From Rhodothermales bacterium (GTDB taxonomy: Bacteria > Bacteroidota > Rhodothermia > Rhodothermales > JABDKH01), in NCBI GenBank assembly GCA_013002165.1, contig JABDKO010000227.1, positions 5,142 to 69,141 on the forward strand: a stretch of 64,000 bases of DNA. The letters are read 5' to 3'. Under the pieces are notes generated by a model. It did no database searches and was not told the DNA's origin. It saw only the letters and a program-made list of their open reading frames with translations. Below are positions 10,653 to 26,434 of the stretch, piece after piece (the first letter of the stretch is position 1; each line of letters opens with the position of its first letter). Made by a program: the position numbers and the translations under genes.

Positions 10653-11034
10653 CATTGCAGTCTCAATTCCAATTCCCTCAAGTTACCCTCGTTGTCGCCT
10701 CACTTCTCCTTCGGGTGTACACCGGAAAATCTTGACAGGATCTACACTGGATGACCGTTGTCCGTTCTTTTACCGACATCCAATTTACCTTAAGTTGTTA
10801 TTTCTAAAAGCCGATAATGCTGTCGAATCGTGTTAACAGTTAGCCCATTGTTAACTCGTCCCACAATAAGATTCGGCAGAAAGATTAACGTCATCTAGCC
10901 ACTGTAAGCGACCCAGAGACTGCCACCACAGTCTGATTGAACACCGGTTAGCATGAAGACTGGTTGATGCGGGAGACCACCCGTTATTGGCCGGGACATC
11001 TGTATGCTGGTTGAAAGCCGCGCTTACATACGAG

Positions 11035-14000: not shown

Positions 14001-14841
14001 GAATATGTCGATTGATGAGGCGTTGGTCAATGTTACGTCTGATGTCGTCATGGTAAAAGACTACGCTGGCCGTGTTTATTTCCCTGATTTCCAGATTAAT
14101 GAAATCGGAGATTTGGAGCCGGGCCAGGGTTACAAGCTGTTCGTAAATTCCGGTGGGACACTGACCTATCCAGCGAATGCCGCCGGTGTGGCGAGTCGAT
14201 CCAAGGAAGAGTCTGGTCAGGTTCTCGTCGGCATAGCGAGCTCGTCGCTTGTAGTCGTTGATGCCTCAAAACTTCCGGGTGCCCGCAGAGTTTTCGCGGT
14301 TCTTGAGAACGGAACCCGGATTGGTGAGGCGTGGATCTCATCGGTTACAAATCAGGCCTATGTCAAGGTAAGAGGTGACGATGACGTGACCATCGATCTC
14401 GTCGAGGGAGCACTCAACGGAGATCGAATCATTCTTGAAGCGGAGTTTGGTACGGGCGATGTCAAGCGCGTATCGGCCTCCAATATTCAAGATATCCTTG
14501 GCTCAAATACAAGAAGTGTTCTATCCCTGTCCTACAAGACTGATTCGGCGTACCTGGTTGAACTGGGCGAGATTCCAGGAGACTATGTCCTCGAACAGAA
14601 CTATCCGAATCCCTTCAACCCGTCTACAACGATTCGGTATGAGTTACCGGACGATGAGTTCGTCAAGATTGAAGTGTTCAACATGCTTGGTGAGCGTGTC
14701 GCTACACTCGTGAACGAGGAAGTCAGTGCCGGTTCGCATACTGCTACCTTCGAGGCAGACAATATATCAAGCGGCCTTTATGTCTATCGCTTGATCGCTG
14801 GAAGCTATATCGAAGACAGAGCAATGATGTTCTTGAAATAG
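11035..14841 (+). CDS. Secreted multidomain protein: CxxCH module (paralog B), two Ig-like domains, further beta-rich domains and a T9SS C-terminal sorting domain
   Basis: ATG 11035 gives the signal peptide MIIKTTVSHLYRLAVAAIFAGTFLLGPSAQAQ. The track start is TTG 10987. The C-terminus reads NYPNPFNPSTTIRYELP... Confidence 0.85.
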   Translation: MIIKTTVSHLYRLAVAAIFAGTFLLGPSAQAQIKVPIEVIGPDGYTQSVNVNVTSASEVSRLWLQVHSPGYKYGEGNKMSVRINGGAWTDVNNQIAICEAPESSYECIGGAFATVRFTIPATGVISGNNTIDFRFNGTEGLTIGYRVLAFNFVRSDNSKILPESTFYYDDPSLWTAPLTSQSDIDRGKQLWESEPLLDFGNVSITATCADCHAKDGRDLQYFAYSNHSIIERSKFHGMSQTEGEQVASYIRNLAVASHGTPWDPPYQPGPGLDDKPAEEWAAGAGLEWVLEEDEQMIPHMFPDGFSSDQILTSNDLNMREIPIGIQLPDWNEWLPRVHPKDAWGSVFTTSSVYTIYATSIPSTLAGGVQNAINSGSILSVMDSWGAAIRDGRGSSTFNPDFFGGWGSDGTVADYQLGYQQWQAVKTWEIMNTYEGLQEAAPTLYPGVGEARSWFGNTRSVFDVAPHISGPPQTGSYPHGDPLQNFFMSSAWYELQLILNSGNRNGVSIRPHDWKYHYGHIGDIMKESGRREPMRHLKAYAKNMQMADNRYGVGTANGFYLRHVTPSRMVGTPGAKNPFEDLDSATRRAVTEPILRALVVKLLEHDISEWSRQTGLYGIEPASTVPTPGNGFDTSTYIDHFYHAIPVFNSIGVAPTLLDSLATWAESAWPLGDWHSLYDYNQSNNPPSITLTSPANGTTYTEPATIAMSASASDIDGSVVSVKFFQNGIQIHEDNSAPYSYTWSGVVPGTYTISALAEDNSSATAVSGSVSVTVNSDNPGPPPSNNDPTVAITSPLAGASYDEGDNIVIEANASDSDGSVSVVQFYQNNILLGQDTSAPYSFTWSNVQEGAYALSAVATDNDGASTTSNSIVVTAGDNPGPPPTITETQTIDLVVGWNQVSTYVAPQVSEIASIFQPIVSDIFLVKDVVGNSYHPALGINTIENWNSLESYQVYANAASTFDVEGAVLDPSTTAVPIVEGWNYIPYLRKTNMSIDEALVNVTSDVVMVKDYAGRVYFPDFQINEIGDLEPGQGYKLFVNSGGTLTYPANAAGVASRSKEESGQVLVGIASSSLVVVDASKLPGARRVFAVLENGTRIGEAWISSVTNQAYVKVRGDDDVTIDLVEGALNGDRIILEAEFGTGDVKRVSASNIQDILGSNTRSVLSLSYKTDSAYLVELGEIPGDYVLEQNYPNPFNPSTTIRYELPDDEFVKIEVFNMLGERVATLVNEEVSAGSHTATFEADNISSGLYVYRLIAGSYIEDRAMMFLK
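11656..11670 (+). other. CADCH heme-c attachment-type motif in paralog B
   Basis: The codons tgc gca gac tgc cat are in frame, at the position homologous to CSDCH of paralog A. Confidence 0.6.
13081..13680 (+). repeat. Two tandem Ig-like (bacterial Ig / chitobiase-type) domain repeats, each followed by a DNPGPPP linker
   Basis: Repeat 1 is NNPPSITLTSPANGTTY...SAPYSYTWSGVVPGTYTISALAEDN. Repeat 2 is NNDPTVAITSPLAGASY...SAPYSFTWSNVQEGAYALSAVATDN. Confidence 0.75.
14584..14838 (+). other. T9SS (Por) C-terminal sorting domain
   Basis: YVLEQNYPNPFNPSTTIRYELPDDEFVKIEVFNMLGERVATLV...GLYVYRLIAGSYIEDRAMMFLK. Confidence 0.85.
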
Positions 14842-14855
14842 AGCATCGAGTCTTG

Positions 14856-14896
14856 ACAGTCCGGCGCCGGAAACGGCAAGCGGTGAGCCGGACTGT
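14856..14896 (+). terminator. Possible terminator hairpin after paralog B
   Basis: A 10-bp stem ACAGTCCGGC/GCCGGACTGT has a 21-nt loop and starts 15 nt after the stop. It is followed only by TTTCC, a weak T tract. Confidence 0.3.
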
Positions 14897-14959
14897 TTCC
14901 GCCACGGAAGCATCCCACTACAGGCGGTTTCCAAACTGCCCGTCTAACCCACCCAGAAA

Positions 14960-17900
14960 ATGGAAAGAGTACTCGGCCTAGTGGCACTTCTGTGCCTTGC
15001 TACCGGTGTAACTGGTACGGTGCAAGCCCAAACGCATTTCACCGGATGCGTTTCATCAACCGGTGAAAATGCAACGGTGCTTGTTAACGATACGATCGGG
15101 CCATCGATTGATGGTGTTGCACTGGCTAGCGGAGATGAGATTGCCGTCTTTACGACGGAAGGACTATGTGTCGGTGTTGAGGTCTGGACGGGTATCAACA
15201 TCGCACTTACCGTTTGGGGAGACAATTCCCTGACCACAGAAAAAGACGGGTTGTCTGCCAGTGAGCAGATGAATTTTGTGGTCTGGGATGCGTCCTCTCA
15301 AACGGAATTTGGAAACAGTTACGGATCCGTTGATGTGGCATACAGTTCAGTTTCGCCATATAACGGCACCGGTCTCTATGACTCGGATGCCATATACCAG
15401 TTGACTCTGCTAGCGGCCAGCACACCGCGACATCCGGTGGCCGCAGCTTCGGCAACCCCGACTTCGGGAAGCACACCGCTACTCGTCACGTTCGATGCAA
15501 GCGCGTCTTCTGATGAAGATGGATCGATTATTTCATACGCATGGGACTTCGGCGATGGCGGATCCGGGTCGGGCGTTGGCACAACCAATACCTTCATGTC
15601 TGCCGGCACCTATCCGGTTGTCTTGACCGTGACCGACGATGATGCCTACTCCTCCACAGACACGGTAACGATCGTCGTTTCGCCTGCTCCTACAAACGTG
15701 CCGCCCACAGCTTCCTTTTCCCTGACTCCTGATTCCGGCCAGGCACCTCTTACTGTCACCGTCGATGCATCAGGGAGTTCTGACTCCGATGGATCCATCG
15801 TCTCGTACACATGGACATTTGGTGATGGAAGCTCTGCGACGGGTGTCAGCGCATCCCACGAGTATAGCCAGGCAGGTACATTCAGCGTCGTGCTGACTGT
15901 TACTGACGATGATGGAGCAACGGCGTCAGAAACCCGAACAGTAAGCGTTCTGGAGCCGAACAATCAGCCGCCAGCGGCTGCCTTCTCTGCCTCCACGTCT
16001 ACGGGAGTTATTCCACTTCTCGTTACATTCGATGCCTCATCCAGTACTGATCCCGACGGGTCAATTGCTACGTACACCTGGAATTTTGGAGATGGAAGTG
16101 CGGCTACCGGTGTCTCGACATCAAAGACATATACTGTCGCAGGAAGCTACATTGTCACTCTTACCGTCACCGACGACGATGGCGCATCTTCATTAACGCA
16201 GCAGACTATACTTGCTTCGGCAGGCACCTCGAATTTGCCACCGGTAGCAGCATTCACGCTGACACCTAGTGTAGGTACGGCACCTGTCACCGTCGCAACC
16301 GACGGTAGTGCCTCAACGGATTCAGACGGAACGATTTCTTCGTACGCATGGGACTATGGTGACGGCGCTACTGGAACCGGCGTTACTGATTCGCACACCT
16401 ATTCAACGTCGGGCACGTACACAGTCACACTTACCGTCAGCGACAACAATGGTGCAACTGGAAGTTCGTCACAGACGGTAACAGTCTCGTCTCCACCCAC
16501 CGCCGGACCTCTGGTTATGCACCTGACATTCGATGAGTCGTCGGGACAAAACGCAACTGATGTTTCCACGAACGGCAATGATGGTACGTTGCAGGGCGGG
16601 GCGGAGTTTGCGACAGCTGGCATACTATCAGGAGCAGTTCTGCTGAATGGTGGCGACGCTTATGTCGATGTGGCTGACAATGCAGTGCTTAATCAGCAGA
16701 TTGTGAGTAAACGAACGATTTCCATTTGGTTCAGGGCGGATGACGTCTCTGTATCGTCTCGGAAACAGGTCATCTGGGAAGAGGGAGGTCAGCAGAAAGG
16801 CCTTTCGATCTATCTTTTCAATGGATCCCTGTACGTGGGTGGCTGGAACAAATCCACTTCCGAAAGTGGTTGGGACGGCACGTTCCTTTCGACAAGTGCC
16901 GTTCAGTCAAATACGTGGAATCATGTTGCACTTGTGCTCAATGGTGGGCCCACTGTCAGCCCGGGCGCATTGCTGGGATATCTCAATGGGGCTTCCATCG
17001 GAAACGGTACCGCTTCCCAGGTCTGGTCTCACAATGATGACATTGGCATCGGGCGCGTAGATGGCGATACCTGGTTTCATGACGCTACCAATAAGAGCGG
17101 ACAAACACACGGATTCTCTGGGTATATCGATGATGTTCGCGTCTATAACCAGGTACTGACGCAGCCTGAGATCAACGATCTGGCGAATGGCGGCGGGGCA
17201 TCACAGAATCTGCCTCCGAACGCCGTGATTGATGTCGATCAGCAGAGCGGACCTGCGCCACTCCAGGTAAATTTTTCGGCAACGCGTTCTTCCGATAACG
17301 ATGGCAGCATTCAAAGTTACTCGTGGACTCTGGGTAATGGTGAATTCGGAACGGGCCCGACAGTGGCGGCATCGTATACGACGGCCGGGACGTACTCCGT
17401 GACTCTCACAGTGATTGACAACGATGGTGCAACATCCTCCGCGAATGCGACGATTACAGTCGAGCAAACCGTTGGAAATGCACCCCCTCGAGCAGAGATA
17501 GTCGAAACTCTGGGTCGGCGAAACTCCATGTCGATTTCGCTGAACGGAGAGTCATCTTCCGATCCCGACGGGTCGATTGTTCACTACGACTGGGACTTTG
17601 GTGATGGGGCTACAAGCACGGGGCCGTCCGCAACGCATGAGTACTCATCACCCGGATCGTTTCAGGTAATTCTTACCGTGACGGATGACGTGGGACTACA
17701 GGGATCATCAACTTTCTGGGTTTCCGTCTACGATCTGCTTCCAGAAGGAACCGGAAGCAGCCTCGTGGGAGCCGGACAGGGTCAGGACCCGGGCTTTGCC
17801 AGCTACGACGGAGAGACACTGACGCTGCGATCGTCGGCCGCAGTTCCTTCAGCATCTTCCGATGTGTTTCGATTTGTTCATGAGACGGTATCTGGTGACG

Positions 17901-18574
17901 CAACGATCACAGTAAGAATTGAAGAGATCAGTTCCGGTCAGAGCTCTGCACGCATCGGCGTGATGCTTCGCAGTCAGCTCACGCCGGCTGCAACCATGGC
18001 ACATTTGACCATCGATGGCACGGGGCAGGCACATCTCGAGAGTCGCCCCGTAGCAGGTGCTCCGGCGACCTTCTCATCGGCTGGTAGCTTCGGGATTCCC
18101 GGGTGGATCCGGATTAGCCGTCAGGGCAATACATTCAGAACCTTTGCTTCGGTAGATGGTGCAGTATGGACGCCGACAGGGCAGGTCGAGATAGGAATGC
18201 CGGAAACTGTATTTATGGGTGTGACCGCGTCATCCCAATCGGGGTCATCGTTTGACGCCAGTCTTGACAACGTCGCATTCGAGTCGACCGATGAAGCCCT
18301 GCCGGCTGGATACCTTCTGTCTGAAGCCTACCCGAACCCGTTTAATCCGGCCTCGCAGATAACCCTGGTGGTAGACCAGGCGCAGGAGATAAGCGTTTCC
18401 GTGTACAGTGTTACCGGTGTTTTAGTCCAGCAATTGTTCATCGGTGAAGTCGCCGCAAACCAGCTGTACGAATACAGATTTGCTGCGACGGATGGACTTG
18501 CCAGTGGCACTTATTTCTTGCGGGTTTACGGAGAATCCTTTGCGGCAACGAGAGCCGTGGTTTTACTCAAATAA
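14960..18574 (+). CDS. Secreted 1204-aa adhesin-like protein: six PKD domains, a LamG/ConA-like domain, a second ConA-like domain and a T9SS sorting domain
   Basis: It has the signal peptide MERVLGLVALLCLATGVTGTVQAQ, PKD signatures (FDASxSxDxDGSIxSYxWxFGDG...YxVxLTVTDDDG) and a C-terminal YPNPFNPASQITLVV. Confidence 0.9.
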   Translation: MERVLGLVALLCLATGVTGTVQAQTHFTGCVSSTGENATVLVNDTIGPSIDGVALASGDEIAVFTTEGLCVGVEVWTGINIALTVWGDNSLTTEKDGLSASEQMNFVVWDASSQTEFGNSYGSVDVAYSSVSPYNGTGLYDSDAIYQLTLLAASTPRHPVAAASATPTSGSTPLLVTFDASASSDEDGSIISYAWDFGDGGSGSGVGTTNTFMSAGTYPVVLTVTDDDAYSSTDTVTIVVSPAPTNVPPTASFSLTPDSGQAPLTVTVDASGSSDSDGSIVSYTWTFGDGSSATGVSASHEYSQAGTFSVVLTVTDDDGATASETRTVSVLEPNNQPPAAAFSASTSTGVIPLLVTFDASSSTDPDGSIATYTWNFGDGSAATGVSTSKTYTVAGSYIVTLTVTDDDGASSLTQQTILASAGTSNLPPVAAFTLTPSVGTAPVTVATDGSASTDSDGTISSYAWDYGDGATGTGVTDSHTYSTSGTYTVTLTVSDNNGATGSSSQTVTVSSPPTAGPLVMHLTFDESSGQNATDVSTNGNDGTLQGGAEFATAGILSGAVLLNGGDAYVDVADNAVLNQQIVSKRTISIWFRADDVSVSSRKQVIWEEGGQQKGLSIYLFNGSLYVGGWNKSTSESGWDGTFLSTSAVQSNTWNHVALVLNGGPTVSPGALLGYLNGASIGNGTASQVWSHNDDIGIGRVDGDTWFHDATNKSGQTHGFSGYIDDVRVYNQVLTQPEINDLANGGGASQNLPPNAVIDVDQQSGPAPLQVNFSATRSSDNDGSIQSYSWTLGNGEFGTGPTVAASYTTAGTYSVTLTVIDNDGATSSANATITVEQTVGNAPPRAEIVETLGRRNSMSISLNGESSSDPDGSIVHYDWDFGDGATSTGPSATHEYSSPGSFQVILTVTDDVGLQGSSTFWVSVYDLLPEGTGSSLVGAGQGQDPGFASYDGETLTLRSSAAVPSASSDVFRFVHETVSGDATITVRIEEISSGQSSARIGVMLRSQLTPAATMAHLTIDGTGQAHLESRPVAGAPATFSSAGSFGIPGWIRISRQGNTFRTFASVDGAVWTPTGQVEIGMPETVFMGVTASSQSGSSFDASLDNVAFESTDEALPAGYLLSEAYPNPFNPASQITLVVDQAQEISVSVYSVTGVLVQQLFIGEVAANQLYEYRFAATDGLASGTYFLRVYGESFAATRAVVLLK
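15434..16490 (+). repeat. Four tandem PKD domain repeats (protein-level repeats)
   Basis: Four roughly 88-aa units each contain the D-x-DG-S-I pattern, W-x-FGDG and LTVTDDDG-like motifs. Confidence 0.85.
16505..17195 (+). other. LamG / concanavalin-A-like lectin domain
   Basis: The region runs LVMHLTFDESSGQNATDVSTNGNDGTLQGGAEF...WNHVALVLNG...GYIDDVRVYNQVLTQPEINDL. Confidence 0.7.
17211..17730 (+). repeat. Two further PKD domain repeats
   Basis: Supporting segments are SSDNDGSIQSYSWTLGNGEFG...TLTVIDNDG and SSDPDGSIVHYDWDFGDGAT...ILTVTDDVG. Confidence 0.8.
18313..18571 (+). other. T9SS C-terminal sorting domain
   Basis: LLSEAYPNPFNPASQITLVVDQAQEISVSVYSVTGVLVQQL...GTYFLRVYGESFAATRAVVLLK. Confidence 0.85.
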
Positions 18575-18720: not shown

Positions 18721-19035
18721 ATGATTGCTGAAGCTGAAATGATCTCCGAAAAAGCGTATATAATCGTAAGTAAAGATCTTCTATCATCGAGGCTGGGCGA
18801 CGAGATTGTAATCCTTAGTGTCAACGGTGGGAAATACTACGGTCTCAATCCTCTCGCGGCGTTCGTCTGGGGCCTGCTTGCAGATCCAGTCAAATTCAAT
18901 GACTTGAAGATGGCTGTCCTGCAAGAGTATGAAGTCCCTGAAGATAAATGTGTCGCCGATCTGAACAAGCTGATCGTCGATCTACAGAAAGAAGGCCTCG
19001 TCAGCATTGCTGAAGAGAATCCGGTCACGTCCTGA
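18721..19035 (+). CDS. PqqD-like RiPP recognition element (lasso peptide B1 protein)
   Basis: 104 aa with the pattern LGDEIVILSVNGGKYYGLNPLAAFVWGLL...LQEYEVPEDKCVADLNKLIVDLQKEGLV, typical of PqqD/RRE proteins. The start could also be the Met at 18739. Confidence 0.85.
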   Translation: MIAEAEMISEKAYIIVSKDLLSSRLGDEIVILSVNGGKYYGLNPLAAFVWGLLADPVKFNDLKMAVLQEYEVPEDKCVADLNKLIVDLQKEGLVSIAEENPVTS

Positions 19036-19101: not shown

Positions 19102-20004
19102 ATGAAACACTATTCGGTCTACGGCCTCAACATTTCGTCAGAATTCGAACTCCTCGGCGCACGCACTACAACCCCGTCTCCGGTACCAGATGTCGTGGTG
19201 ACGCGGACCAGTCTTGATTTGCCGTCATCCGAATCTTTTGAAGATGGAAGGTATTCGTCCGCCACAATGTACGAGGCCTTACTTGCCTGGGAAAAGGTTG
19301 GCTGCATACGGATCTTGAGTGGGAAGGAGATACAGGTCGCGCCGATCGCAGGTATTCCCGATGCTGTTGTCAGCCTTTTCATAACGGGTGTAGCGATGGG
19401 TGTTTTGCTTCACCAACGAGGTTTTCTCGTATTGCACGCGAGCGCCGTCCGCATTCAGGACAAAGTCGCTGCATTCATCGGTTTCAAGGGCATGGGTAAA
19501 TCAACGACCGCCGCTGCCATGGTCGGTCAGGGCGCATCGCTGGTCTCTGATGACATCCTTGCAATCGACGGTGATTTCCTTGCGCGTCCAGGCTCCGATC
19601 TTGTCAAATTGTGGCCGCGTGCACTCAGCGCCGCTCTCGAAGATGATCCTGAAGAGAGTCCTGCCTTGTATCCCGGGATTGAAAAGCGTGCAAAGGTATT
19701 TCCAGACTCAGTTGTCGCTGAGCCGTTTCCACTCAGGGCGATCTACGTGCTCGATTCCGGCAACACAGTATCCATTCAAGATGTTGCGCCTGCCGCTGCG
19801 TTCCTTGAGATCATGCGTCATACCTACGCTCCACGTTTTGTGGGTACAGATGGGACGCCGCCGGAATTGTTTGCACAGTGCACACGTTTGGTATCGCAGA
19901 TTCCGGTATTCCGACTGCATCGAAAGCCGGACCTTGCTGAGTTGTCGTCTGTTGCTGTTGCGGTTGAAAGCCACTTCTCGGATCTTCTAGTACAGAATGA
20001 GTGA
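19102..20004 (+). CDS. HPr kinase/phosphorylase-like serine kinase (lasso-peptide tailoring kinase type)
   Basis: MKHYSVYGLNISSEFEL... then LLHQRGFLVLHASAV...AFIGFKGMGKSTTAAAMVGQGASLVSDDI (P-loop). It has an 8-nt overlap with the B2 gene. The track start at 19060 is a probable 5' over-extension. Confidence 0.8.
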   Translation: MKHYSVYGLNISSEFELLGARTTTPSPVPDVVVTRTSLDLPSSESFEDGRYSSATMYEALLAWEKVGCIRILSGKEIQVAPIAGIPDAVVSLFITGVAMGVLLHQRGFLVLHASAVRIQDKVAAFIGFKGMGKSTTAAAMVGQGASLVSDDILAIDGDFLARPGSDLVKLWPRALSAALEDDPEESPALYPGIEKRAKVFPDSVVAEPFPLRAIYVLDSGNTVSIQDVAPAAAFLEIMRHTYAPRFVGTDGTPPELFAQCTRLVSQIPVFRLHRKPDLAELSSVAVAVESHFSDLLVQNE

Positions 20005-20464
20005 TGAGAAAACATCGTACGAAGGTCGCTTCGATCGAAAATTTGCAGGCGATGGGATTCTCTTCGTCCGGGCACTACTCTTACTAGTCGTTGCCAGGCT
20101 GAGTCTCGCCGCAACAGACTATGTCCGGACAGCGAAGCTATTCGGAGAACAGGATTCCTTTGACAGCGACAGGGGGCAAGCTCAAGGCCTTGCCACTTTC
20201 AGATATCGCGCCGCCTGGGCAGTCTCAAAAGCCTCGCGTATCGTTAGATATGACCGTCCATGCCTTGCTCAGGCACTCGTGCTTCGTTTTATCCTTAGAA
20301 GAAAAGGAATATCATCTGACCTGCGCATCGGCGTAAAGAAAAATGACGACCTGTCGATTCGAGCACATGCGTGGGTCGAGAAGGACGGAATTGTTCTGAT
20401 AGGAGGTGCGTCCTCTCCGTTCAGATACACGATGCTCACCCCGGAAGATCAGATAACGCTATGA
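19997..20464 (+). CDS. Lasso peptide leader peptidase B2 (transglutaminase-like Cys protease)
   Basis: 155 aa with the catalytic Cys context RPCLAQALVLRFILRRKGI and His context IRAHAWVEKDGIVLIG. Confidence 0.85.
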   Translation: MSDEKTSYEGRFDRKFAGDGILFVRALLLLVVARLSLAATDYVRTAKLFGEQDSFDSDRGQAQGLATFRYRAAWAVSKASRIVRYDRPCLAQALVLRFILRRKGISSDLRIGVKKNDDLSIRAHAWVEKDGIVLIGGASSPFRYTMLTPEDQITL

Positions 20465-22443
20465 GTGGTCTGGCAGGAATTGTGTTCCGTGATGACCGCC
20501 ACGGGGCTGCCAATTTGATTGACAACATGGTTCAGTCAATGCAATATCGTGGGCCAGACGGGATTGACATCTGGACGAACGCGCATGCAATGCTGGGCCA
20601 GTGCACCCTTCAATCTTCCTCATTCTCTGGATCCGCAATTGCCACGGGCCAGAGCAATGATCGTTTCGTGGTCGTTGGTGATGTGCGCATTGATAACAGA
20701 GATGAACTCCTTAAAATCTGTGGTCATCCGGGAAGTGGACACCCTGCGTCGAAGTCGGACCTTGCACTCGTGAAGTTATTGTTTGAGTCGAGCGGAGATG
20801 CCTTCATTGATTCTATTGAAGGAGATTTTGCATTCGTCCTGTACGATGTTGCCGAGAGAACTATTCGCTGCTACCGCGATCATTTTGGTACGCGCCCGTT
20901 TTACTATTTCCTGAATCGAGACCTGTTTGTTTGTGCATCAGATATCAAGGGAATAATAGCATCGGGTCTGGTTGAGGACACAATCGACACCGACAAACTA
21001 GAGGACTATCTTGTCGGGAATCTTGCGAACCAGGAGAGAACGTTTTATAAAAACATCCGGCGACTGCCACCGGCAAGCGTCATGCTGGTCGACCCGGAAA
21101 ACGTGAAGTTGCATAAGTACTGGAGCGTCGACCAGGTTGAAACGATCGATGCACCGGAGGATCAGATGATCGCCGGTTTTCGCAGCCGATTTCTCACTGC
21201 TGTCAAGAATCGTATCGGATCAGCAGGCGATACTGCATTCATGCTGAGCGGCGGACTTGACTCATCGTCGGTGGTATCCAGTGCAGCCCACATTGCTGCC
21301 GGTAACACGAAAAGATTCAAAACCTATTCCGTCGAATTTCCCTATCTGCCTGACAAGATTAGAAGTCGTACCGATGAAACGGAATATGTAGATGCGGTAG
21401 TTGGTAGCAGCGGTTTGGTCAGTAGTCGGCTCGCAGGTGACACCCAGACGCCACTATCGAGCCTGCAAAGAATGCTGGAGATACACGACGAACCATTTCT
21501 CGTCCCAAATGCTTACCTCGACGCTATCGCTTTGTCTGCAGTACATCACGATGGATGCAAGGTGTTGCTCACCGGACTGGAAGGAGATCTGACTATATCG
21601 CATGGCGATTGGTACTTGAAAGAATTAGGATTCAAAGGTGAGTGGCAGTCGTTCGTCCGCGAGAGCCGTGCCCTGGCAGCCAGAACGGAGAGCGAGCCAG
21701 AGTTGTTTTTTGAACGGTATGCTGTGCCTACTCTCCAGGAACTGGCTCGCTCCGGAGAATGGGGAGCCTTCCGGCGTGGCGCTTCTTCAATGGGACAAGA
21801 ATACGGAGATTCAACCGCGGGCCTGATCTGGCGTCTTGGAATGAGACCCACTTTAGCATCAATATTCAGGAGATTCTCTCAGCGCGAGACACTGGAGGAT
21901 GAGCGGGCATTAAGATTTGTAAGTAGAAAATACCCTGGTCGGAAGGACATCATCGCCCGAATTAACGAAAGTTCACACGAGATGGACCATTCGCGGACCC
22001 AATTTGACCATCATGTTGGTCAGCTGCAGTCCGGGTATCCGGCTTCGCTGCTCGAATTTGCCGAAAAAAACGCCGCAAACTGGCAAATCGACGTTCGTCA
22101 TCCGTTTTTTGACCGCCGACTGGTCGAGTACTCCGTCGGCCTCCCCGGGAGCGCTAAATTATCTGACGGATGGGCCCGATATATACTGCGGGCATCTATG
22201 GAACAGATATTGCCTGATAAAGTACGTTGGAGGGCTCAGAAAGCGGCTCTCGGGCCCAATTTTGCCTATTTGATGGGTAAGGAGTCCGAGGATCGCATAC
22301 GTGCCCTCGCTGAAACGGCAATACAGTATTTTCCGTATATCATTGATAAATCAAGTGTTAGCAACTTGATAAATCGACAGAAATACGCTACTTTGTGGAG
22401 AATACTGGTACTGGGAGGCTGGGTTTTGCAGAAACGATCCTGA
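20461..22443 (+). CDS. Lasso peptide cyclase (asparagine-synthetase-like, C protein)
   Basis: ATG 20461 overlaps the B2 stop (ATGA). It starts MSGLAGIV, so the Cys2 glutaminase nucleophile is absent, but it keeps the PP-loop FMLSGGLDSSSV. The track start at 20371 is an over-extension. Confidence 0.9.
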   Translation: MSGLAGIVFRDDRHGAANLIDNMVQSMQYRGPDGIDIWTNAHAMLGQCTLQSSSFSGSAIATGQSNDRFVVVGDVRIDNRDELLKICGHPGSGHPASKSDLALVKLLFESSGDAFIDSIEGDFAFVLYDVAERTIRCYRDHFGTRPFYYFLNRDLFVCASDIKGIIASGLVEDTIDTDKLEDYLVGNLANQERTFYKNIRRLPPASVMLVDPENVKLHKYWSVDQVETIDAPEDQMIAGFRSRFLTAVKNRIGSAGDTAFMLSGGLDSSSVVSSAAHIAAGNTKRFKTYSVEFPYLPDKIRSRTDETEYVDAVVGSSGLVSSRLAGDTQTPLSSLQRMLEIHDEPFLVPNAYLDAIALSAVHHDGCKVLLTGLEGDLTISHGDWYLKELGFKGEWQSFVRESRALAARTESEPELFFERYAVPTLQELARSGEWGAFRRGASSMGQEYGDSTAGLIWRLGMRPTLASIFRRFSQRETLEDERALRFVSRKYPGRKDIIARINESSHEMDHSRTQFDHHVGQLQSGYPASLLEFAEKNAANWQIDVRHPFFDRRLVEYSVGLPGSAKLSDGWARYILRASMEQILPDKVRWRAQKAALGPNFAYLMGKESEDRIRALAETAIQYFPYIIDKSSVSNLINRQKYATLWRILVLGGWVLQKRS

Positions 22444-22456
22444 ATTTTTACTTTTG
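22425..22456 (+). promoter_or_regulatory. Candidate Bacteroidetes-type promoter (TTTG-N20-TACTTTTG) for the precursor gene
   Basis: TTTG at 22425-22428 and TAnnTTTG at 22449-22456, spaced 20 nt apart, lie 66 nt upstream of the precursor ATG. This is meaningful only if the host uses the Bacteroidetes sigma-A consensus. Confidence 0.3.
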
Positions 22457-22522
22457 GATCGTACTCAAAGCTAGGTGATTCAGTACAGTACATAACATCA
22501 AGCCTTAATTAAGGAATAAGAC

Positions 22523-22681
22523 ATGTCAAACAACGAGAAAAAGGCTTACGAAGCTCCGGCTTTGACCGTCTATGGCAATGTCGAGGAGATCACAAGCTCA
22601 AAGACGTGGCACGCTGCGTCTGACTGGCTTGGCGAAATCGTCGATTACATGTCGCCAAAAGACAACGACTTCTCGTCCTAA
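22523..22681 (+). CDS. Lasso peptide precursor (A), 52 aa; not in the supplied ORF track
   Basis: It translates as MSNNEKKAYEAPALTVYGNVEEITSSKTWHAASDWLGEIVDYMSPKDNDFSS. AAGGA lies 7 nt upstream of the ATG. The leader fits YxxPxLx3Gx5Tx exactly (Y9 P12 L14 G18 T24). The predicted core has Ser1...Asp9. Confidence 0.85.
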   Translation: MSNNEKKAYEAPALTVYGNVEEITSSKTWHAASDWLGEIVDYMSPKDNDFSS

Positions 22682-22694
22682 GTAAAATTGGGCA

Positions 22695-22710
22695 GGGGCA
22701 TCAGTGCCCC
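22695..22710 (+). terminator. Small GC hairpin just after the precursor stop
   Basis: GGGGCA-tcag-TGCCCC starts 14 nt after the stop codon. Confidence 0.4.
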
Positions 22711-22740
22711 TTAACGGATTCGTTCCGGCTTACGTAAGTA

Positions 22741-22780
22741 AAGCCTCGAGAGATCTCTCTCGAGGCTTTTCTATTTTATT
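22741..22780 (+). terminator. Rho-independent terminator
   Basis: A perfect 12-bp stem AAGCCTCGAGAG / CTCTCGAGGCTT with an ATCT loop is followed by TTCTATTTTATT. Confidence 0.85.
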
Positions 22781-22884
22781 AACGTCCGCTGCACATCAAA
22801 ACTTTTGATTCTGAGCCACATTGAACGATACTTTCTTAATGGAGTGTCGTTTTAACATCAAGCAGAATCTGGGCCTGAATAATC

Positions 22885-24732
22885 ATGATTCCCGAATTCG
22901 GTAAAGATCCGATCAAGGAATGGCGTAAGCTTCGCCGAGCGCTGAGGCTGGTATGGGAGTCGTCCCGGTCGTGGACGACGGCCTGGGGGATTCTGCTTGT
23001 CGTCCAGGGCCTCCTGCCGGCGGCCACGGTGTACCTGATTAAACTTCTGGTGGATGCCCTCGTCGCTACAATGCAAGCCGGAGGCTCAGGAGATACTATT
23101 GCGCCGCTCGTGACGTATGCCCTGTTGATGGCCGCGACACTGTTGGCAACGCAGCTGATGCAGCAAATCCAAAGCTGGATCCGCCTTGCACAGGCCGAAC
23201 ATGCATCTGACTACATCAGAGCAGTTATTCATGACAAGGCTGTAGAGGTCGACTACGGGTTCTATGAGACGCCGCGATACTTTGACCGACTTCATCGGGC
23301 GATATCCGATGCAGGGTCCAAGCCACTGGCGTTGCTCGAGTCTCTTGGCCTGCTTGCGCGGAACGCGATCACCTTGCTGGCAATGGCGGCCATAATCCTG
23401 CCTTACGGATGGTGGCTTCCGGCCCTGCTGATTCTCAGTACAATTCCGGCGTTTCTCGTAATCCTCCGTTACAATCGGAAAACGCACGCATGGTGGGAGT
23501 CGAGGACGACTGATCGCCGGTGGGCCCACTACTTTGATACGTTGCTGACGCACAGTTCGATGGCGGCTGAGGTCAGGCTGTTTAATCTTGGGCCCAACTA
23601 CTCATCCTTGTATCAGGATGTCAGAAAGGTTCTGCGCCGTGAACGTATTGACATCGAACGGCGAAATGTAGTTGCTCGAGGCAGCGCAGCACTCCTTGGT
23701 CTTCTTGTTCTGGCATTCGCGATGGGATGGATGGGCCTGCGTGCCATTAGAGGTGAGGTAACGCTAGGTGATATCGCGCTCTTCTACCAGGCATTCAATC
23801 AGGGTCAACAGCTGCTGAAGGGACTTCTGGGCTCCGTCGGGCAGATCTACAACAGCAGCCTGTTTCTCGACAACTTGTACGACTTTCTCGATCAGGAGCC
23901 ATCCATCGCCCATGAAGAAAATGCTCCACCGTTTCCATCCGAAGTTTCAGAGATCGAGTTTCGCGATATAACATTCCACTACCCCGAGTCAGCGCGAGCG
24001 GCACTGACTGGATTCAATCTTCGTATTGATGGTACGTCTTCAACGGCAATTGTCGGTCAGAACGGGGCCGGGAAAAGCACGCTTCTCAAACTTCTCTGCC
24101 GGTTCTACGACCCGCAGCAGGGAAGTGTTATGGTTAACGGTCGAGACATTCGCGAATATAATCTTCGAAGTCTTCGAGATTCGATTGCTGTTCTTTTTCA
24201 GTTCCCCGTCAACTTTCACGCAACGGTTGAAGAATCGATACACCTTGGCAGTATCGCACAGCCGGTAGACACGACGAGGGTTGAAGAAGCGGCGGTTGTA
24301 GCCGGAGCGGATTCGTTCATCAAGTCGCTTCCTGCAGGGTACGGTTCATTGCTCGGTAAATGGTTTGTAGACGGGCAGGAACTGAGTGGTGGAGAATGGC
24401 AGCGACTGGCAATGGCAAGGGCAATTTACCGGGACGCGCCAATAGTACTGCTGGACGAGCCGACCAGCATGATGGATTCGTGGAGTGAGGCAGACTGGTT
24501 CAATCGTCTGCTCTCACATTCGGATGGAAAGGCCTTGTGCGTAATCACGCATAGGCTCACAATCGCGAAGAGGGCAGCTACAATTGTTGTCATGCATCAG
24601 GGCAACATCGTGGAGCGAGGAACCCACGATGAACTGATCGCAAGAAATGGTCGCTACGCAGAGTCCTGGTTCGAACAACATTCGGAGGATGTGGAGGGCA
24701 GTCCTCGCGAAGTCGGGGGTGCTGGCGGATGA
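22885..24732 (+). CDS. ABC transporter, fused permease/ATPase (lasso peptide exporter/immunity type, McjD-like)
   Basis: The N-terminal half has six hydrophobic spans. It has Walker A GQNGAGKST, signature LSGGEWQR and Walker B IVLLDEPTS. Confidence 0.9.
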   Translation: MIPEFGKDPIKEWRKLRRALRLVWESSRSWTTAWGILLVVQGLLPAATVYLIKLLVDALVATMQAGGSGDTIAPLVTYALLMAATLLATQLMQQIQSWIRLAQAEHASDYIRAVIHDKAVEVDYGFYETPRYFDRLHRAISDAGSKPLALLESLGLLARNAITLLAMAAIILPYGWWLPALLILSTIPAFLVILRYNRKTHAWWESRTTDRRWAHYFDTLLTHSSMAAEVRLFNLGPNYSSLYQDVRKVLRRERIDIERRNVVARGSAALLGLLVLAFAMGWMGLRAIRGEVTLGDIALFYQAFNQGQQLLKGLLGSVGQIYNSSLFLDNLYDFLDQEPSIAHEENAPPFPSEVSEIEFRDITFHYPESARAALTGFNLRIDGTSSTAIVGQNGAGKSTLLKLLCRFYDPQQGSVMVNGRDIREYNLRSLRDSIAVLFQFPVNFHATVEESIHLGSIAQPVDTTRVEEAAVVAGADSFIKSLPAGYGSLLGKWFVDGQELSGGEWQRLAMARAIYRDAPIVLLDEPTSMMDSWSEADWFNRLLSHSDGKALCVITHRLTIAKRAATIVVMHQGNIVERGTHDELIARNGRYAESWFEQHSEDVEGSPREVGGAGG

Positions 24733-25970
24733 TCAAGACGCACGCTATTCACGAAAACGGGCACGACTCGACAGTGAAGACTGCACGGGAAGGTCCGATC
24801 GTCTCTGGCGCTTCGAGGGAGATGGAATTTATTCTTACCGTTCTTCACGCGAATTGGCCCGAAGCAGGACCCGCTCGTGCGGGCACGTTGATCGAGATAG
24901 GACTCGATTGGCGTTTAGTGCTGCGTCTGGCCATTCATCACGGAGTGATAGATCTCTTTTTTGATAACCTGCGTGGTACAATTGTCGATTTGCTGCCGCA
25001 GAGTCTCACCGATAGCCTTCAGGCCAACAGCCAACTGTCAGCGCACAAGAACCTCTACTTCTCATCAGAGCTGATTCACATTGTCAGCCTTCTGGAGCGC
25101 GGCGGCATTCCGGTAATCTCACTAAAGGGCCCCCTGCTGGGTTCTTACCTGTACGACAATATCTCGCTTCGTCCATTCGGTGACCTGGATCTCGTAGTGC
25201 GCAAAGAGGATATACTTCGAGCCAAAACGATTCTGGTGGAAGAGGGATTCCGGCCGATTTCGATGTTGAGTGCAGATGACGAGAAGGACTACATTGAAAG
25301 TCAATTCGCTCTGACGCTTACTCGCAAACGCGGAGATTTTCAAACTGTGGCTGAGCTTCACTGGGCACTGACTCACAGGTTTTTCTCTTTCAAGTTCGAT
25401 CCGGAAAATGTCTGGACCATGACCGAGCATTTGAAGTTGTCGGACACGACGATAACCACGCTGGCGCGACCTCTGCTGCTACTGTTCCTGTGCGTTCACG
25501 GCGCGAAGCATGACTGGAATCGTATCATATGGCTTTGCGACGTCGTGCGCCTTGCTCAGCGTATGACCGATGAAGACTGGAAAACATTCGAGCACCTCGC
25601 AAACCAAACCCGGTCGGTCAGGATGGCGACAGTCGGATTGGGTCTGGGGCAGCAACTGATGGGTTACACATATCCAGAAGGGATCCTGACACTCATCAAT
25701 TCGGATGCCAGAGGCCAGAAATGGACGACGCGTCTTGCACAGCATTTCAAGAGTGGCGAGACAAACAAGCTGCCAAAGCTGGTGTCGATGCGATTCCAGA
25801 CAGGCGTGCGCGAAAGCGTCCGGGACCGTTGGGGATCTTACTGGCAGCAGTTCAAGCTGCTAATTAGTCCTACTGAGTCGGACAGGAGTTTTATCAAGCT
25901 GCCGAGACTTCTATATCCTCTGTACTATGTCGTACGACCGTTACGTGTAATTCTACAACGTACGCGGTAA
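24729..25970 (+). CDS. Nucleotidyltransferase-fold protein (NTP_transf_5-like), putative lasso tailoring enzyme
   Basis: It has an ATGA overlap with the exporter gene and the Pol-beta-type NTase motif LRPFGDLDLVVRKED. Confidence 0.75.
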   Translation: MIKTHAIHENGHDSTVKTAREGPIVSGASREMEFILTVLHANWPEAGPARAGTLIEIGLDWRLVLRLAIHHGVIDLFFDNLRGTIVDLLPQSLTDSLQANSQLSAHKNLYFSSELIHIVSLLERGGIPVISLKGPLLGSYLYDNISLRPFGDLDLVVRKEDILRAKTILVEEGFRPISMLSADDEKDYIESQFALTLTRKRGDFQTVAELHWALTHRFFSFKFDPENVWTMTEHLKLSDTTITTLARPLLLLFLCVHGAKHDWNRIIWLCDVVRLAQRMTDEDWKTFEHLANQTRSVRMATVGLGLGQQLMGYTYPEGILTLINSDARGQKWTTRLAQHFKSGETNKLPKLVSMRFQTGVRESVRDRWGSYWQQFKLLISPTESDRSFIKLPRLLYPLYYVVRPLRVILQRTR

Positions 25971-25999: not shown

Positions 26000-26434
26000 T
26001 CAGGCGGCCGGCTTTTCTGACTGGACAACCGTTGGTTGAAAACCAGTTGGAACCGAAATTGGACTCTCTTTCGCCGACGAATCTTCCACGAGCAGTGTAG
26101 GGTAGGCGCCGAGGTCAAAGTCGCGTACAAATCGACGAAGTACCTCGGGCAATGAAACGACTATGTTGTCATTTACCTCGCGTATCTCGGATTGCCAGGC
26201 GCGGGCAACAGATGCCGCTTTCGACGGGTCTTTGAAGCAAACACCATCCACGCCCACCATTCGCGAAAGACTACGCGAAACAGGGCACGAATATAGCTTA
26301 CCTCTGATGCCGGAAGGAATAGAGTCGAGGCTATTCATATCCAACGCTGAGCGCGCATCATTCAGGGCGCAGAGTACCTTTCTACGGCTGGGCCGAAAGG
26401 GGAATACCATCATAGCAGTAAGTATCCTATGCAT
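26000..26434 (-). CDS. Hypothetical protein (weak call)
   Basis: It is the only long ORF in the 0.9-kb gap after the lasso cluster. I recognised no motif, and it may be non-coding. Confidence 0.3.
   Translation of the reverse strand: MHRILTAMMVFPFRPSRRKVLCALNDARSALDMNSLDSIPSGIRGKLYSCPVSRSLSRMVGVDGVCFKDPSKAASVARAWQSEIREVNDNIVVSLPEVLRRFVRDFDLGAYPTLLVEDSSAKESPISVPTGFQPTVVQSEKPAA

Follow-up and report, generated by a model that had tools for sequence, protein, structure and literature searches.

Introduction

To our knowledge, phosphorylated or phosphoglycosylated lasso peptides are known from just a handful of Bacillota and Proteobacteria, and a sugar-adding enzyme of the PsmN type (PF14907) has never been reconstituted in vitro. 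In the paeninodin-type systems, as summarized in two sources, the HprK-like kinases PadeK, ThcoK and SyanK act on the C-terminal Ser of the linear precursor, and ThcoK and SyanK add several phosphates (PMC9266682; PMC8498205). Mutagenesis has shown a His-Lys-Asp-Asp motif to be essential in lasso kinases (PMC9266682; PMC10368454). In the pseudomycoidin system, the C-terminal Ser is (poly)phosphorylated by PsmK, and the uncharacterized nucleotidyltransferase PsmN, which matches an ANT(2'')-like fold and has the catalytic DxD pair D134/D136, is needed for hexose additions of +162 and +324 Da on the phosphate (PMC6993621). BsfK, the kinase encoded by the bsf locus in Bradymonas sediminis, modifies a residue in the ring and is strongly stimulated by B1 (PMC10368454).

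Here, a lasso peptide operon from a marine-type Rhodothermales bacterium is compared with these systems. The operon lies in a stretch of 64,000 nucleotides, referred to as the window, which was analyzed as a whole and to which all positions refer. An earlier, sequence-only reading had predicted a lasso peptide with a C-terminal phosphoserine and possible further decoration, and every element of it that could be tested in silico was upheld. It had also stated that an NTP_transf_5-type gene is reported to further modify the phosphate in pseudomycoidin, which is accurate according to PMC6993621.

Gene content of the operon

The locus is one compact operon of seven genes in the order B1-K-B2-C-A-D-N, all on the + strand between positions 18721 and 25970 (Table 1), and the genes overlap or stand close together. 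A terminator-like site at 18540-18560, upstream of B1, marks the start of the operon. The span 19102-25970 given previously contains the genes quoted for it at their correct places but misses the beginning of the cluster, since B1, which encodes the RiPP recognition element (RRE), lies upstream. K begins with an ATG (MKHYSVYGL...) that agrees with the starts of its homologues, and its end overlaps the start of B2 by 8 nt. C likewise begins with an ATG, in an ATGA overlap with B2. N had been described as coupled to the exporter gene, and this arrangement was found as described: the ATG of N overlaps the TGA of D by 4 nt (ATGA).

Table 1. Positions of the operon genes and of a hairpin within the window
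Feature	Position	Strand	Evidence
B1, PqqD-like RiPP recognition element (leader-binding chaperone), 104 aa	18721-19035	+	Pfam PqqD 58.2 bits (GA 23.4)
K, HprK-like lasso-precursor kinase, 300 aa	19102-20004	+	P-loop GFKGMGKST and H112/K133/D150/D151
B2, transglutaminase-like leader peptidase, 155 aa	19997-20464	+	NF033537 lasso_biosyn_B2 81.6 bits (cut-off 33)
C, asparagine-synthetase-like lasso macrolactam cyclase, 660 aa	20461-22443	+	Asn_synthase 142 bits, GATase_7 59 bits
A, lasso precursor, 52 aa	22523-22681	+	NF033528 and NF033521 above cut-offs
Terminator-like hairpin, 13-bp stem followed by a T-run	22740-22769	+	Directly 3' of the precursor gene
D, ABC exporter, fused TMD-NBD, 615 aa	22885-24732	+	Pfam ABC_tran 102 bits, ABC_membrane 39.9 bits
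N, NTP_transf_5 (PsmN-type) nucleotidyltransferase-fold tailoring enzyme, 413 aa	24729-25970	+	PF14907 179.5 bits

A PqqD-like RRE, a transglutaminase-like protease and an Asn-synthetase-like cyclase are encoded together, as in class II lasso clusters with a split B protein. In addition to the matches in Table 1, B1 scores 59.4 bits against NCBIfam lasso_PqqD_Bac, which is under the cut-off of 80, and B2 scores 78.1 bits against Pfam Transglut_core3. C scores 478.7 bits against the lasso cyclase model NF033535, a strict ‘exception’ model with a cut-off of 525, and both of its Pfam matches are above their cut-offs. Close homologues of D (E<1e-100) are found downstream of the kinase cluster in many related loci. 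The identity of the cluster is not a matter of chance, because the precursor scores above the cut-offs of two curated lasso models from NCBIfam and the B2, PqqD and NTP_transf_5 matches are strong; sequence and comparison together establish the identities of all seven genes. The hairpin that follows the precursor gene probably acts as a partial terminator or as an attenuator and so tunes the ratio of precursor to downstream enzymes.

The A reading frame translates as MSNNEKKAYEAPALTVYGNVEEITSSKTWHAASDWLGEIVDYMSPKDNDFSS, with a 25-aa leader (22523-22597) that carries Y-17, P-14, L-12, G-8 and T-2 and a 27-aa core (22598-22678), SKTWHAASDWLGEIVDYMSPKDNDFSS. A lasso precursor was recognized by a leader with Y(-17)xxP(-14)xL(-12) and Thr(-2), a small residue at core position 1 and an Asp or Glu acceptor at positions 7-9. 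YEAPALTVYGNVEEITS shows the canonical Y(-17)xxP(-14)xL(-12) and Thr(-2) spacing with core Ser1 and Asp9, between which the macrolactam ring is predicted to form. A leader/core junction after ‘SK’ or ‘TK’, which would give a core with Thr1 and Asp7, was rejected because the spacing Y(-17)/P(-14)/L(-12)/G(-8)/T(-2) fits a start at Ser26 only. The precursor scores 33.5 bits against NF033528 (cut-off 33) and 22.1 bits against NF033521 (cut-off 19).

The core opens with S1-K2-T3. The precursor ends in DFSS, as had been read from the sequence, with Ser51 encoded at 22673-22675 and Ser52 at 22676-22678, and all five near-identical variants from close relatives share the FSS terminus. Used as the query of a protein collection, the 52-aa precursor matched one cluster, at 98% identity, and a metagenome scan added one further close variant together with unrelated lasso precursors that have the leader in common.

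The kinase and its relatives

The P-loop GFKGMGKST, on which the prediction of an HPr-kinase-like protein had been based, was found at residues 127-135 of K (nt 19480-19506). In alignments of 17 and 45 homologues, H112, K133 and D150-D151 are invariant, and across the 45 the P-loop residues G132-K133-S134-T135 join them as invariant or nearly so. All of these residues line up with the H...GKST...DD blocks in the published lasso kinases. BLASTP comparison of K with the published kinases gave 77 bits for BaceK, 75 for PsmK, 72 for PapoK, 60 for PadeK, 59 for ThcoK and 52 for SyanK, the references being partial segments of about 95 aa taken by OCR from Suppl. Fig. S10 of PMC10368454, in which minor errors are possible and SyanK is short by one residue. 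Identity between the core of K and BaceK, PsmK, PapoK, PadeK and ThcoK is 40-49% over 82-85 aa. These comparisons support K as a lasso-precursor kinase whose nearest published segments belong to the group acting on a C-terminal Ser. The AlphaFold2 (AF2) model of K (pLDDT 95.4) has a PEPCK/HprK-type fold.

Relatives of K were surveyed at 80 genome loci from many bacterial phyla and some archaea. Lasso clusters account for 41 of the 44 kinase loci with full flanks. A precursor was identified at 72 kinase loci and ends in Ser at 44 of them; the contigs of loci P0006 and P0007 stop before the precursor C-terminus. The frequency of Ser in the survey cores is 0.55 at the last position (-1) as against 0.10 overall, which supports the earlier claim that the C-terminal Ser is the type of residue targeted by the kinase. 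Six of 45 published lasso precursors have a terminal Ser, and these are the partners of PadeK, ThcoK, BaceK, PapoK, SyanK and PsmK; it is absent from the other 39. The Mesorhizobium loci of the survey encode precursors close to the characterized SyanA (...ELTFS). Kinase family, lasso clusters and Ser-ending precursors are thus shown by these sequence comparisons to be linked across the family, and a terminal Ser is supported as a family-wide, though not universal, signature of kinase-linked precursors. Precursors without a terminal Ser occur at 28 of the 72 loci (39%), 21 of which still carry N, and therefore the kinase family does not always act on the last residue. In a neighbor-joining tree of the kinases, the nearest relatives of K are mixed, some having Ser-terminal precursors and some not; there is no clean split between the two, so phylogeny alone cannot fix the site.

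As a side observation, homologues of K carry a weak or faint precomputed match to PF27840 (ScmC). The HprK-related kinase A/B, SynChlorMet models TIGR04352 and TIGR04355 gave 31.1 and 37.2 bits with K, under their cut-off of 200.

The nucleotidyltransferase-fold enzyme

The motif FGDLDLVV, by which the gene had been identified as NTP_transf_5-like, spans residues 150-157 of N (nt 25176-25199) and includes D152 and D154. The match to PF14907 far exceeds the cut-off of 31.2 bits and covers profile positions 3-249 of 249. K133, G134, R148, D152 and D154 are invariant among 41 homologues. A sequence search of N against the PDB returned nothing at E<=10, and a comparison of folds was therefore needed. 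The best PDB matches of the AF2 model (pLDDT 89.6) are the ANT(2'')-Ia structures 5cfu, 5cfs and 4xje, with TM scores of 0.67-0.69 on the target, and this list includes entries reported for PsmN (PMC6993621). From the family description, the common structural match and the DxD motif, rather than from direct alignment, we infer that N is homologous to PsmN and that D152/D154 would be the counterparts of PsmN D134/D136.

Of the 80 kinase loci, 48 have an N gene, which immediately follows K in 14 cases and, as in this operon, D in 22. Fusions to methyltransferase domains occur in some N homologues and suggest a more varied chemistry among the family.

Proposed biosynthesis

The best explanation of these findings, and one that we consider likely, is a lasso pathway in six steps. 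B1 would bind the YxxPxL...T(-2) leader of the 52-aa precursor, after which K, with NTP and Mg2+, would phosphorylate the side-chain hydroxyl of Ser52 (core Ser27) while the peptide is still linear. K may act repeatedly and so build a di- or triphosphate chain on Ser52. B2 would then cut off the 25-aa leader, and C would close the Ser1-Asp9 isopeptide ring around the 18-residue tail. N would place a further group on the phosphate, most likely one or two hexoses, and the product would leave the cell through the ABC transporter D, the gene for which and N are translationally coupled. By analogy with the described systems, the product is most likely a 27-residue lasso peptide with a Ser1-Asp9 ring and a (poly)phosphorylated Ser52 whose phosphate is then modified by N; the last serine is probably phosphorylated and probably decorated with sugar. 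The predicted monoisotopic masses are 3067.366 for the lasso peptide itself, 3147.332 with a phosphate, 3309.385 with a phosphate and one hexose and 3471.438 with a phosphate and two hexoses. The site, the order of the steps, the degree of phosphorylation and the adduct made by N are all modeled on PadeK, ThcoK, SyanK, PsmK and PsmN.

One alternative concerns the last modification: K would phosphorylate Ser52 as proposed, but N would add no hexose and would instead make an AMP or UMP adduct, carry out an FKRP/LicD-type phospho-alcohol or phospho-sugar transfer, or act on another substrate. Such an outcome is consistent with the Pol-beta/ANT-type nucleotidyltransferase fold of N and its DxD metal site, with adenylyltransferases (ANT(2'')-Ia, LnuA) as the best structural matches and the CDP-ribitol phosphotransferase FKRP also listed, and with the methyltransferase-fused homologues. 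The authors of the pseudomycoidin study and a later review also consider that PsmN may just make an intermediate for a host glycosyltransferase (PMC6993621; PMC9266682). Against this stands the sole experimental datum for enzymes of this type, the PsmN-dependent +162/+324 Da on the phosphate that is lost when the DxD motif is mutated (PMC6993621), and no other adduct has been reported for them. A role of N other than hexose addition is judged unlikely.

Another alternative, which we regard as improbable, is that K phosphorylates another residue, either core Thr3 (Thr28) in the ring or the penultimate Ser51, the latter giving one non-terminal site or two sites. BsfK, whose own lasso cluster likewise encodes K and N, targets Ser3 of the core and will also take Thr (PMC10368454), and this core has Thr at that position. 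The share of kinase-linked loci whose precursors do not end in Ser points in the same direction, as does the terminus itself: F-S is the end of 19 of the 48 unique Ser-ending cores, and in the F-S-S terminus the Ser after Phe is therefore Ser51 and not Ser52. Yet the resemblance of K to the kinases acting on a C-terminal Ser extends over 82-85 aa and includes LxxGxxMGxLLxQRGxLxLHA, whereas its alignment with the ring-Ser3 kinase BsfK (43.5 bits) is confined to 48 aa around the P-loop. The BsfK type is characterized by a leader with Ile or Val at -2, a precursor end other than Ser and close similarity to BsfK; this operon combines Thr(-2) and a terminal Ser with that 48-aa alignment. In the survey, Ser or Thr at core position 3 is seen in only 13 of 88 cores, and Ser at -2 is at the background frequency of 0.10, which leaves the earlier suggestion of doubly-sited modification through the second Ser without comparative support. 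Given a Ser-ending precursor, a terminal-type kinase is about 20 times likelier than a coincidental Ser (0.6 x 1 versus 0.4 x 0.08, a rough estimate). Phosphorylation at Ser52 is retained as the preferred reading. There is a slim chance that Ser-Ser serves as two separate acceptor sites or that, in a Rhodothermota host, N makes a non-hexose adduct such as a nucleotide or an NDP-derived phospho-sugar; if true, either would be a C-terminal decoration that no RiPP is yet known to carry. Separately, the precedent of BsfK, with phosphorylation at core residue 3 (PMC10368454), was not considered in the sequence-only reading, and that residue is Thr in this core.

The reading of K as a true HPr kinase/phosphorylase that serves carbon-catabolite regulation and is adjacent to the lasso cluster by chance is hardly credible and effectively refuted: K shows weak similarity to Pfam Hpr_kinase_C (20.6 bits, under the gathering score of 33.3) and, over the nucleotide-binding core, to HprK/P and PEP carboxykinase structures (Foldseek E 1e-5 to 5e-8; family profile versus HprK/P 1jb1, E=1.7e-7, 60-aa core only), but it scores 16.9 bits against TIGR00679 (HprK/P; cut-off 240), has no match to the Hpr_kinase_N domain in the Pfam/NCBIfam profile search, is encoded between B1 and B2 with an overlap into the latter, and has homologues that are almost always in lasso clusters, while a tblastn search of the 64-kb window with the HPr proteins of B. 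subtilis and E. coli gave no HPr homologue (best E=1.3). The closer kinship to true HprK that the earlier reading had held open was thus not found.

Comparison with known systems

K has the P-loop nucleotide-binding core, the His and the Asp-Asp metal site in common with ATP-dependent PEP carboxykinase and with the HprK/P of Firmicutes (e.g. L. casei 1JB1/1KKL). It differs in having no Hpr_kinase_N domain, in scores well under the family cut-offs, in its N-terminal beta domain and in its proposed substrate, a RiPP precursor instead of HPr. The bsf locus is a Gram-negative lasso cluster that, like this operon, contains K as well as N, and both cores have Ser or Thr at position 3. The two differ in that BsfK acts on ring Ser3 of a precursor that ends in Asp and has Ile(-2) in its leader, whereas this precursor has Thr(-2) and a terminal Ser (PMC10368454).

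The PadeK, ThcoK and SyanK systems share with this operon the motif His-Lys-Asp-Asp, a B protein divided into B1 and B2, and an ABC exporter; their clusters, unlike this operon, lack N and have the gene orders C-A-K-B1-B2-D (Firmicutes) and A-B1-B2-C-K-D (Proteobacteria). Identity of K with the three kinases is low, about 33-49%, in the catalytic core only, and relatives of SyanA/SyanK (the Mesorhizobium loci) fall within the same set of homologues as K.

The pseudomycoidin cluster psmCAKB1B2ND of Bacillus pseudomycoides DSM 12442 (PMC6993621) matches this operon in all seven functions (A, B1, B2, C, D, K and N). Both precursors end in Ser and have a predicted 9-residue ring, Ala1-Glu9 in pseudomycoidin and Ser1-Asp9 in this operon; both N proteins combine an ANT(2'')-like fold with a DxD motif, and both kinases have the H/K/DD residues, with about 45% identity over an 85-aa core segment. 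The gene orders differ, being C-A-K-B1-B2-N-D in pseudomycoidin and B1-K-B2-C-A-D-N here, so that N precedes the exporter gene in the former and in this operon follows it and is translationally coupled to it. The hosts belong to Bacillota and Rhodothermota, respectively, and the leader is of the YxxPxLxxxGxxxxxT type in this operon as against the Firmicute WQxPxLEVLD...T type. The core is unrelated to that of pseudomycoidin and longer (27 aa), with a Ser-Ser end.

The modification has already been shown in Bacillus and Paenibacillus, and this operon would be a further example of it with no new kind of chemistry. It could be one more candidate for heterologous expression and by itself leaves the known chemistry unchanged; as a tractable cluster with a different gene order, it would offer a route to the chemistry of the PF14907 ‘uncharacterised nucleotidyltransferase’ family. 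The survey extends the association of these kinases with lasso peptides across many bacterial phyla and some archaea, and with this operon the tailoring pair of K and N reaches Rhodothermota, where the gene order is new and the 27-residue core unrelated.

Operon organization

The open reading frame listing and family scans of the window place a precursor gene and six further genes in a single plus-strand operon with the order B1-K-B2-C-A-D-N. Neighbouring genes overlap by 8 nt (K/B2) or 4 nt (B2/C and D/N), and a terminator-like site lies immediately 5' of B1. The three strings quoted in the sequence-only reading (...DFSS, GFKGMGKST and FGDLDLVV) are each found where it had placed them. The two hairpins that follow the precursor stop codon look like a partial terminator, which would shift mRNA levels in favour of the precursor over the D and N genes.

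Features of the operon and its surroundings (window positions)
Feature	Position	Strand	Description
PKD-repeat pair	10987-18574	+	Two proteins, 1284 and 1204 aa; T9SS C-terminal sorting domains; directly upstream of operon
B1	18721-19035	+	PqqD-type RRE; PqqD 58.2 bits
K	19102-20004	+	HprK-like P-loop protein (kinase); HprK-type matches weak only
B2	19997-20464	+	Lasso B2 protease; NF033537 81.6 bits (cut-off 33)
C	20461-22443	+	Lasso cyclase; NF033535 478.7 bits (cut-off 525); Asn_synthase 142 bits
A	22523-22681	+	52-aa precursor; NF033528 33.5 (cut-off 33); NF033521 22.1 (cut-off 19)
Small GC hairpin	within 22690-22769		GGGGCA-TCAG-TGCCCC, directly 3' of precursor stop codon
Strong hairpin	22740-22769		13-bp perfect stem and T-run, between A and D
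D	22885-24732	+	ABC exporter; ABC_tran 102 bits
N	24729-25970	+	NTP_transf_5; PF14907 179.5 bits, full length
144-aa ORF	26000-26434	-	Directly downstream of N; no Pfam or NCBIfam match

Large PKD-repeat/T9SS proteins are syntenic in the related loci L081, L084 and L085, and the upstream pair is probably a mere conserved neighbourhood. The position of the 144-aa ORF is kept in L081 (14952-15389, minus strand); if it is part of the cluster, it might act in immunity or regulation, for instance.

Kinase and nucleotidyltransferase

A hypothetical protein from a Rhodothermales MAG in the phylum Rhodothermota shares 100% identity with K. H112, K133 (in GKST) and D150-D151 are invariant in alignments of 17 and of 45 homologues and form the His-Lys-Asp-Asp motif of lasso kinases established by mutagenesis in ThcoK, PsmK and BsfK (PMC6993621, PMC9266682, PMC10368454). 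Classification of K as a true HprK/P is rejected: its TIGR00679 score is 16.9 bits, and the cut-off of that model is 240. The Hpr_kinase_C score falls under the gathering threshold, the family scan detects no Hpr_kinase_N domain in K, and a profile of the K family matches HprK/P structures over the 60-residue nucleotide-binding core only (E=1.7e-7). A search of the 64-kb window for an HPr homologue returned none.

We know of no lasso kinase structure. The AF2 model of K (pLDDT 95.4) matches ATP-PEPCK and HprK/P folds. At full length, both domains match ATP-dependent PEP carboxykinases with TM values up to 0.58 on the query, versus 0.33 for HprK/P; because the former match is better, the N-terminal beta domain of the model may be PEPCK-like and not HprK-N-like.

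An alignment of 41 homologues of N shows K133, G134, R148, D152 and D154 to be invariant. A PDB sequence search with N gave no match, and its AF2 model (pLDDT 89.6) best matches ANT(2'')-Ia (5cfu, 5cfs, 4xje), LnuA and TM1012, with the CDP-ribitol transferase FKRP lower in the list. The same ANT(2'') entries were reported by Zyubko et al. for PsmN, the pseudomycoidin NTase (PMC6993621). N is provisionally classed with PsmN by family, motif, modelled fold and context, not by alignment with the PsmN sequence. The +162 and +324 Da additions are attached to the phosphate, which they shield from phosphatase, and are lost in a DxD double mutant of PsmN (PMC6993621). Whether PsmN is a direct sugar transferase or the maker of an intermediate was explicitly left open (PMC6993621, PMC9266682), and the literature search found no later mechanistic study of the enzyme. 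Separately, several NTP_transf_5 homologues of 535-592 aa (P0153, P0154, P0158, P0174, P0178, P0179 and P0197) are fused to SAM-dependent methyltransferase domains, a hint of additional tailoring reactions linked to this family.

Precursor peptide

The leader, YEAPALTVYGNVEEITS, carries Tyr(-17), Pro(-14), Leu(-12), Gly(-8) and Thr(-2). Since these residues sit at canonical spacing, by the rule as applied in PMC10368454, the core start is assigned to give a predicted 27-aa core, SKTWHAASDWLGEIVDYMSPKDNDFSS. The ring-forming pair is likely Ser1 and Asp9, and the predicted ring therefore has nine residues, as in paeninodin and pseudomycoidin (PMC6993621).

Close relatives have precursors matching at 50-52 of 52 residues with kinases only 59-71% identical to K. 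The precursor copies, including a metagenomic variant (L088), number five with three distinct sequences, each with FSS at its end. The predicted first residue of the core is Ser in the window (22598-22600), L084 and L088, and Thr in the precursors of L001 (12485-12643) and L081 (11485-11643); Thr would be unusual as the N-terminal ring-forming residue of a lasso peptide. A search of 5.8 billion protein clusters yielded no exact match to the precursor, the one hit being a 98%-identical relative (P0241). That collection does contain the flanking kinase and NTase, from the NCBI record, and the source MAG probably lacks an annotation of the precursor gene.

Distribution of related kinase loci

A scan using one genome per species yielded 270 relatives of K, and the best 80 of the 270 loci were analysed. 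These span Rhodothermota, Acidobacteriota, Cyanobacteriota, Chloroflexota, Planctomycetota, Verrucomicrobiota, Pseudomonadota (Mesorhizobium), Bacillota and several archaea. Among the 44 with full 9-kb flanks, lasso C or B2 genes occur in 41, B1 in 42 and N in 26. Across all 80, N is present in 48; it directly follows K in 14 and the ABC gene in 22, as in the window.

The Mesorhizobium precursors (GGAGTTALDASFPAHTPVGELTFS) show a clear relationship to SyanA, which has been characterised, and so link the locus set to a system with experimental work behind it. Archaeal kinase homologues from a Methanobacterium MAG (L057), a Methanomicrobia MAG (L062), Natronoglomus mannanivorans (L065) and Halobellus (L070, L080) have genes for lasso B1, B2 and C, for N and for precursors with the leader motif as neighbours, so that lasso clusters with a tailoring kinase reach methanogens and haloarchaea.

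Predicted phosphorylation site

Of 81 loci (the best 80 and the window), 72 yielded a precursor with the strict leader motif, and at 44 of the 72 the precursor ends in Ser. In 88 unique cores, Ser occupies the last position at a frequency of 0.55 and the penultimate one at 0.10, with 0.099 overall. Six of 45 published lasso precursors end in Ser, namely those belonging to PadeK, ThcoK, BaceK, PapoK, SyanK and PsmK, the kinases aligned in PMC10368454, and none of the other 39 do so. Terminal Ser is the dominant but not universal state of the kinase family.

The less favoured alternative is that K acts on core residue 3, as does BsfK of Bradymonas sediminis, which also accepts Thr there (PMC10368454); the window core has Thr3. 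At 28 of the 72 loci (~39%) the precursor has another terminal residue, N is still present at 21 of the 28, and the kinase tree does not cleanly split Ser-ending from other precursors. Against this, K resembles the terminal-Ser kinases over a much longer stretch than it does BsfK. In comparisons with the partial kinase sequences given in Suppl. Fig. S10 of PMC10368454, K scores 59-77 bits with BaceK, PsmK, PapoK, PadeK and ThcoK (40-49% identity over 82-85 aa) and 52 bits with SyanK, but only 43.5 bits over 48 aa with BsfK. The leader has Thr(-2), not Ile/Val(-2), and a coincidental terminal Ser is expected in only about 8-10% of cases. On account of the kinase likeness, the Thr(-2) leader and this low chance of coincidence, Ser52 is very probably the residue modified, given an active kinase. 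The earlier proposal of a C-terminal phospho-Ser made by K and possibly tailored by N is supported as a prediction. Calculated monoisotopic masses are 3067.366 for the lasso, 3147.332 for +P, 3227.298 for +2P, 3309.385 for +P+Hex and 3471.438 for +P+2Hex.

The further suggestion that the second terminal serine allows double-site modification finds no comparative support, the Ser at position -2 being at background frequency. Modification of both Ser51 and Ser52 is the less likely case; where several +80 Da steps have been documented, they arise by polyphosphorylation of a single Ser (PMC6993621, PMC9266682).

Loci with non-Ser ends include L002, L005, L011, L013, L020, L026, L043, L046, L054, L068 and others. 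Of 40 non-Ser-ending cores, 26 have their last Ser 1-4 residues before the C-terminus (e.g. ...LSDCR, ...ISSIP), and a GSG[IL]P motif is common to several multi-precursor loci. The phosphorylation site in such systems may be near-terminal, not terminal.

Comparison with known systems

The window cluster has the same functions (A, B1, B2, C, D, K and N) as the pseudomycoidin type. It comes from Rhodothermota, whereas the pseudomycoidin cluster is from Bacillus, and its gene order differs from C-A-K-B1-B2-N-D in Bacillus (PMC6993621) and A-B1-B2-C-K-D in Proteobacteria. Unlike in the pseudomycoidin cluster, N is coupled to the exporter gene, and the core is unrelated to pseudomycoidin, longer, and ends in Ser-Ser. 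These differences in phylum, gene order, N-exporter coupling and core are variations on an already known cluster type, and the cluster would be flagged by standard RiPP-mining tools.
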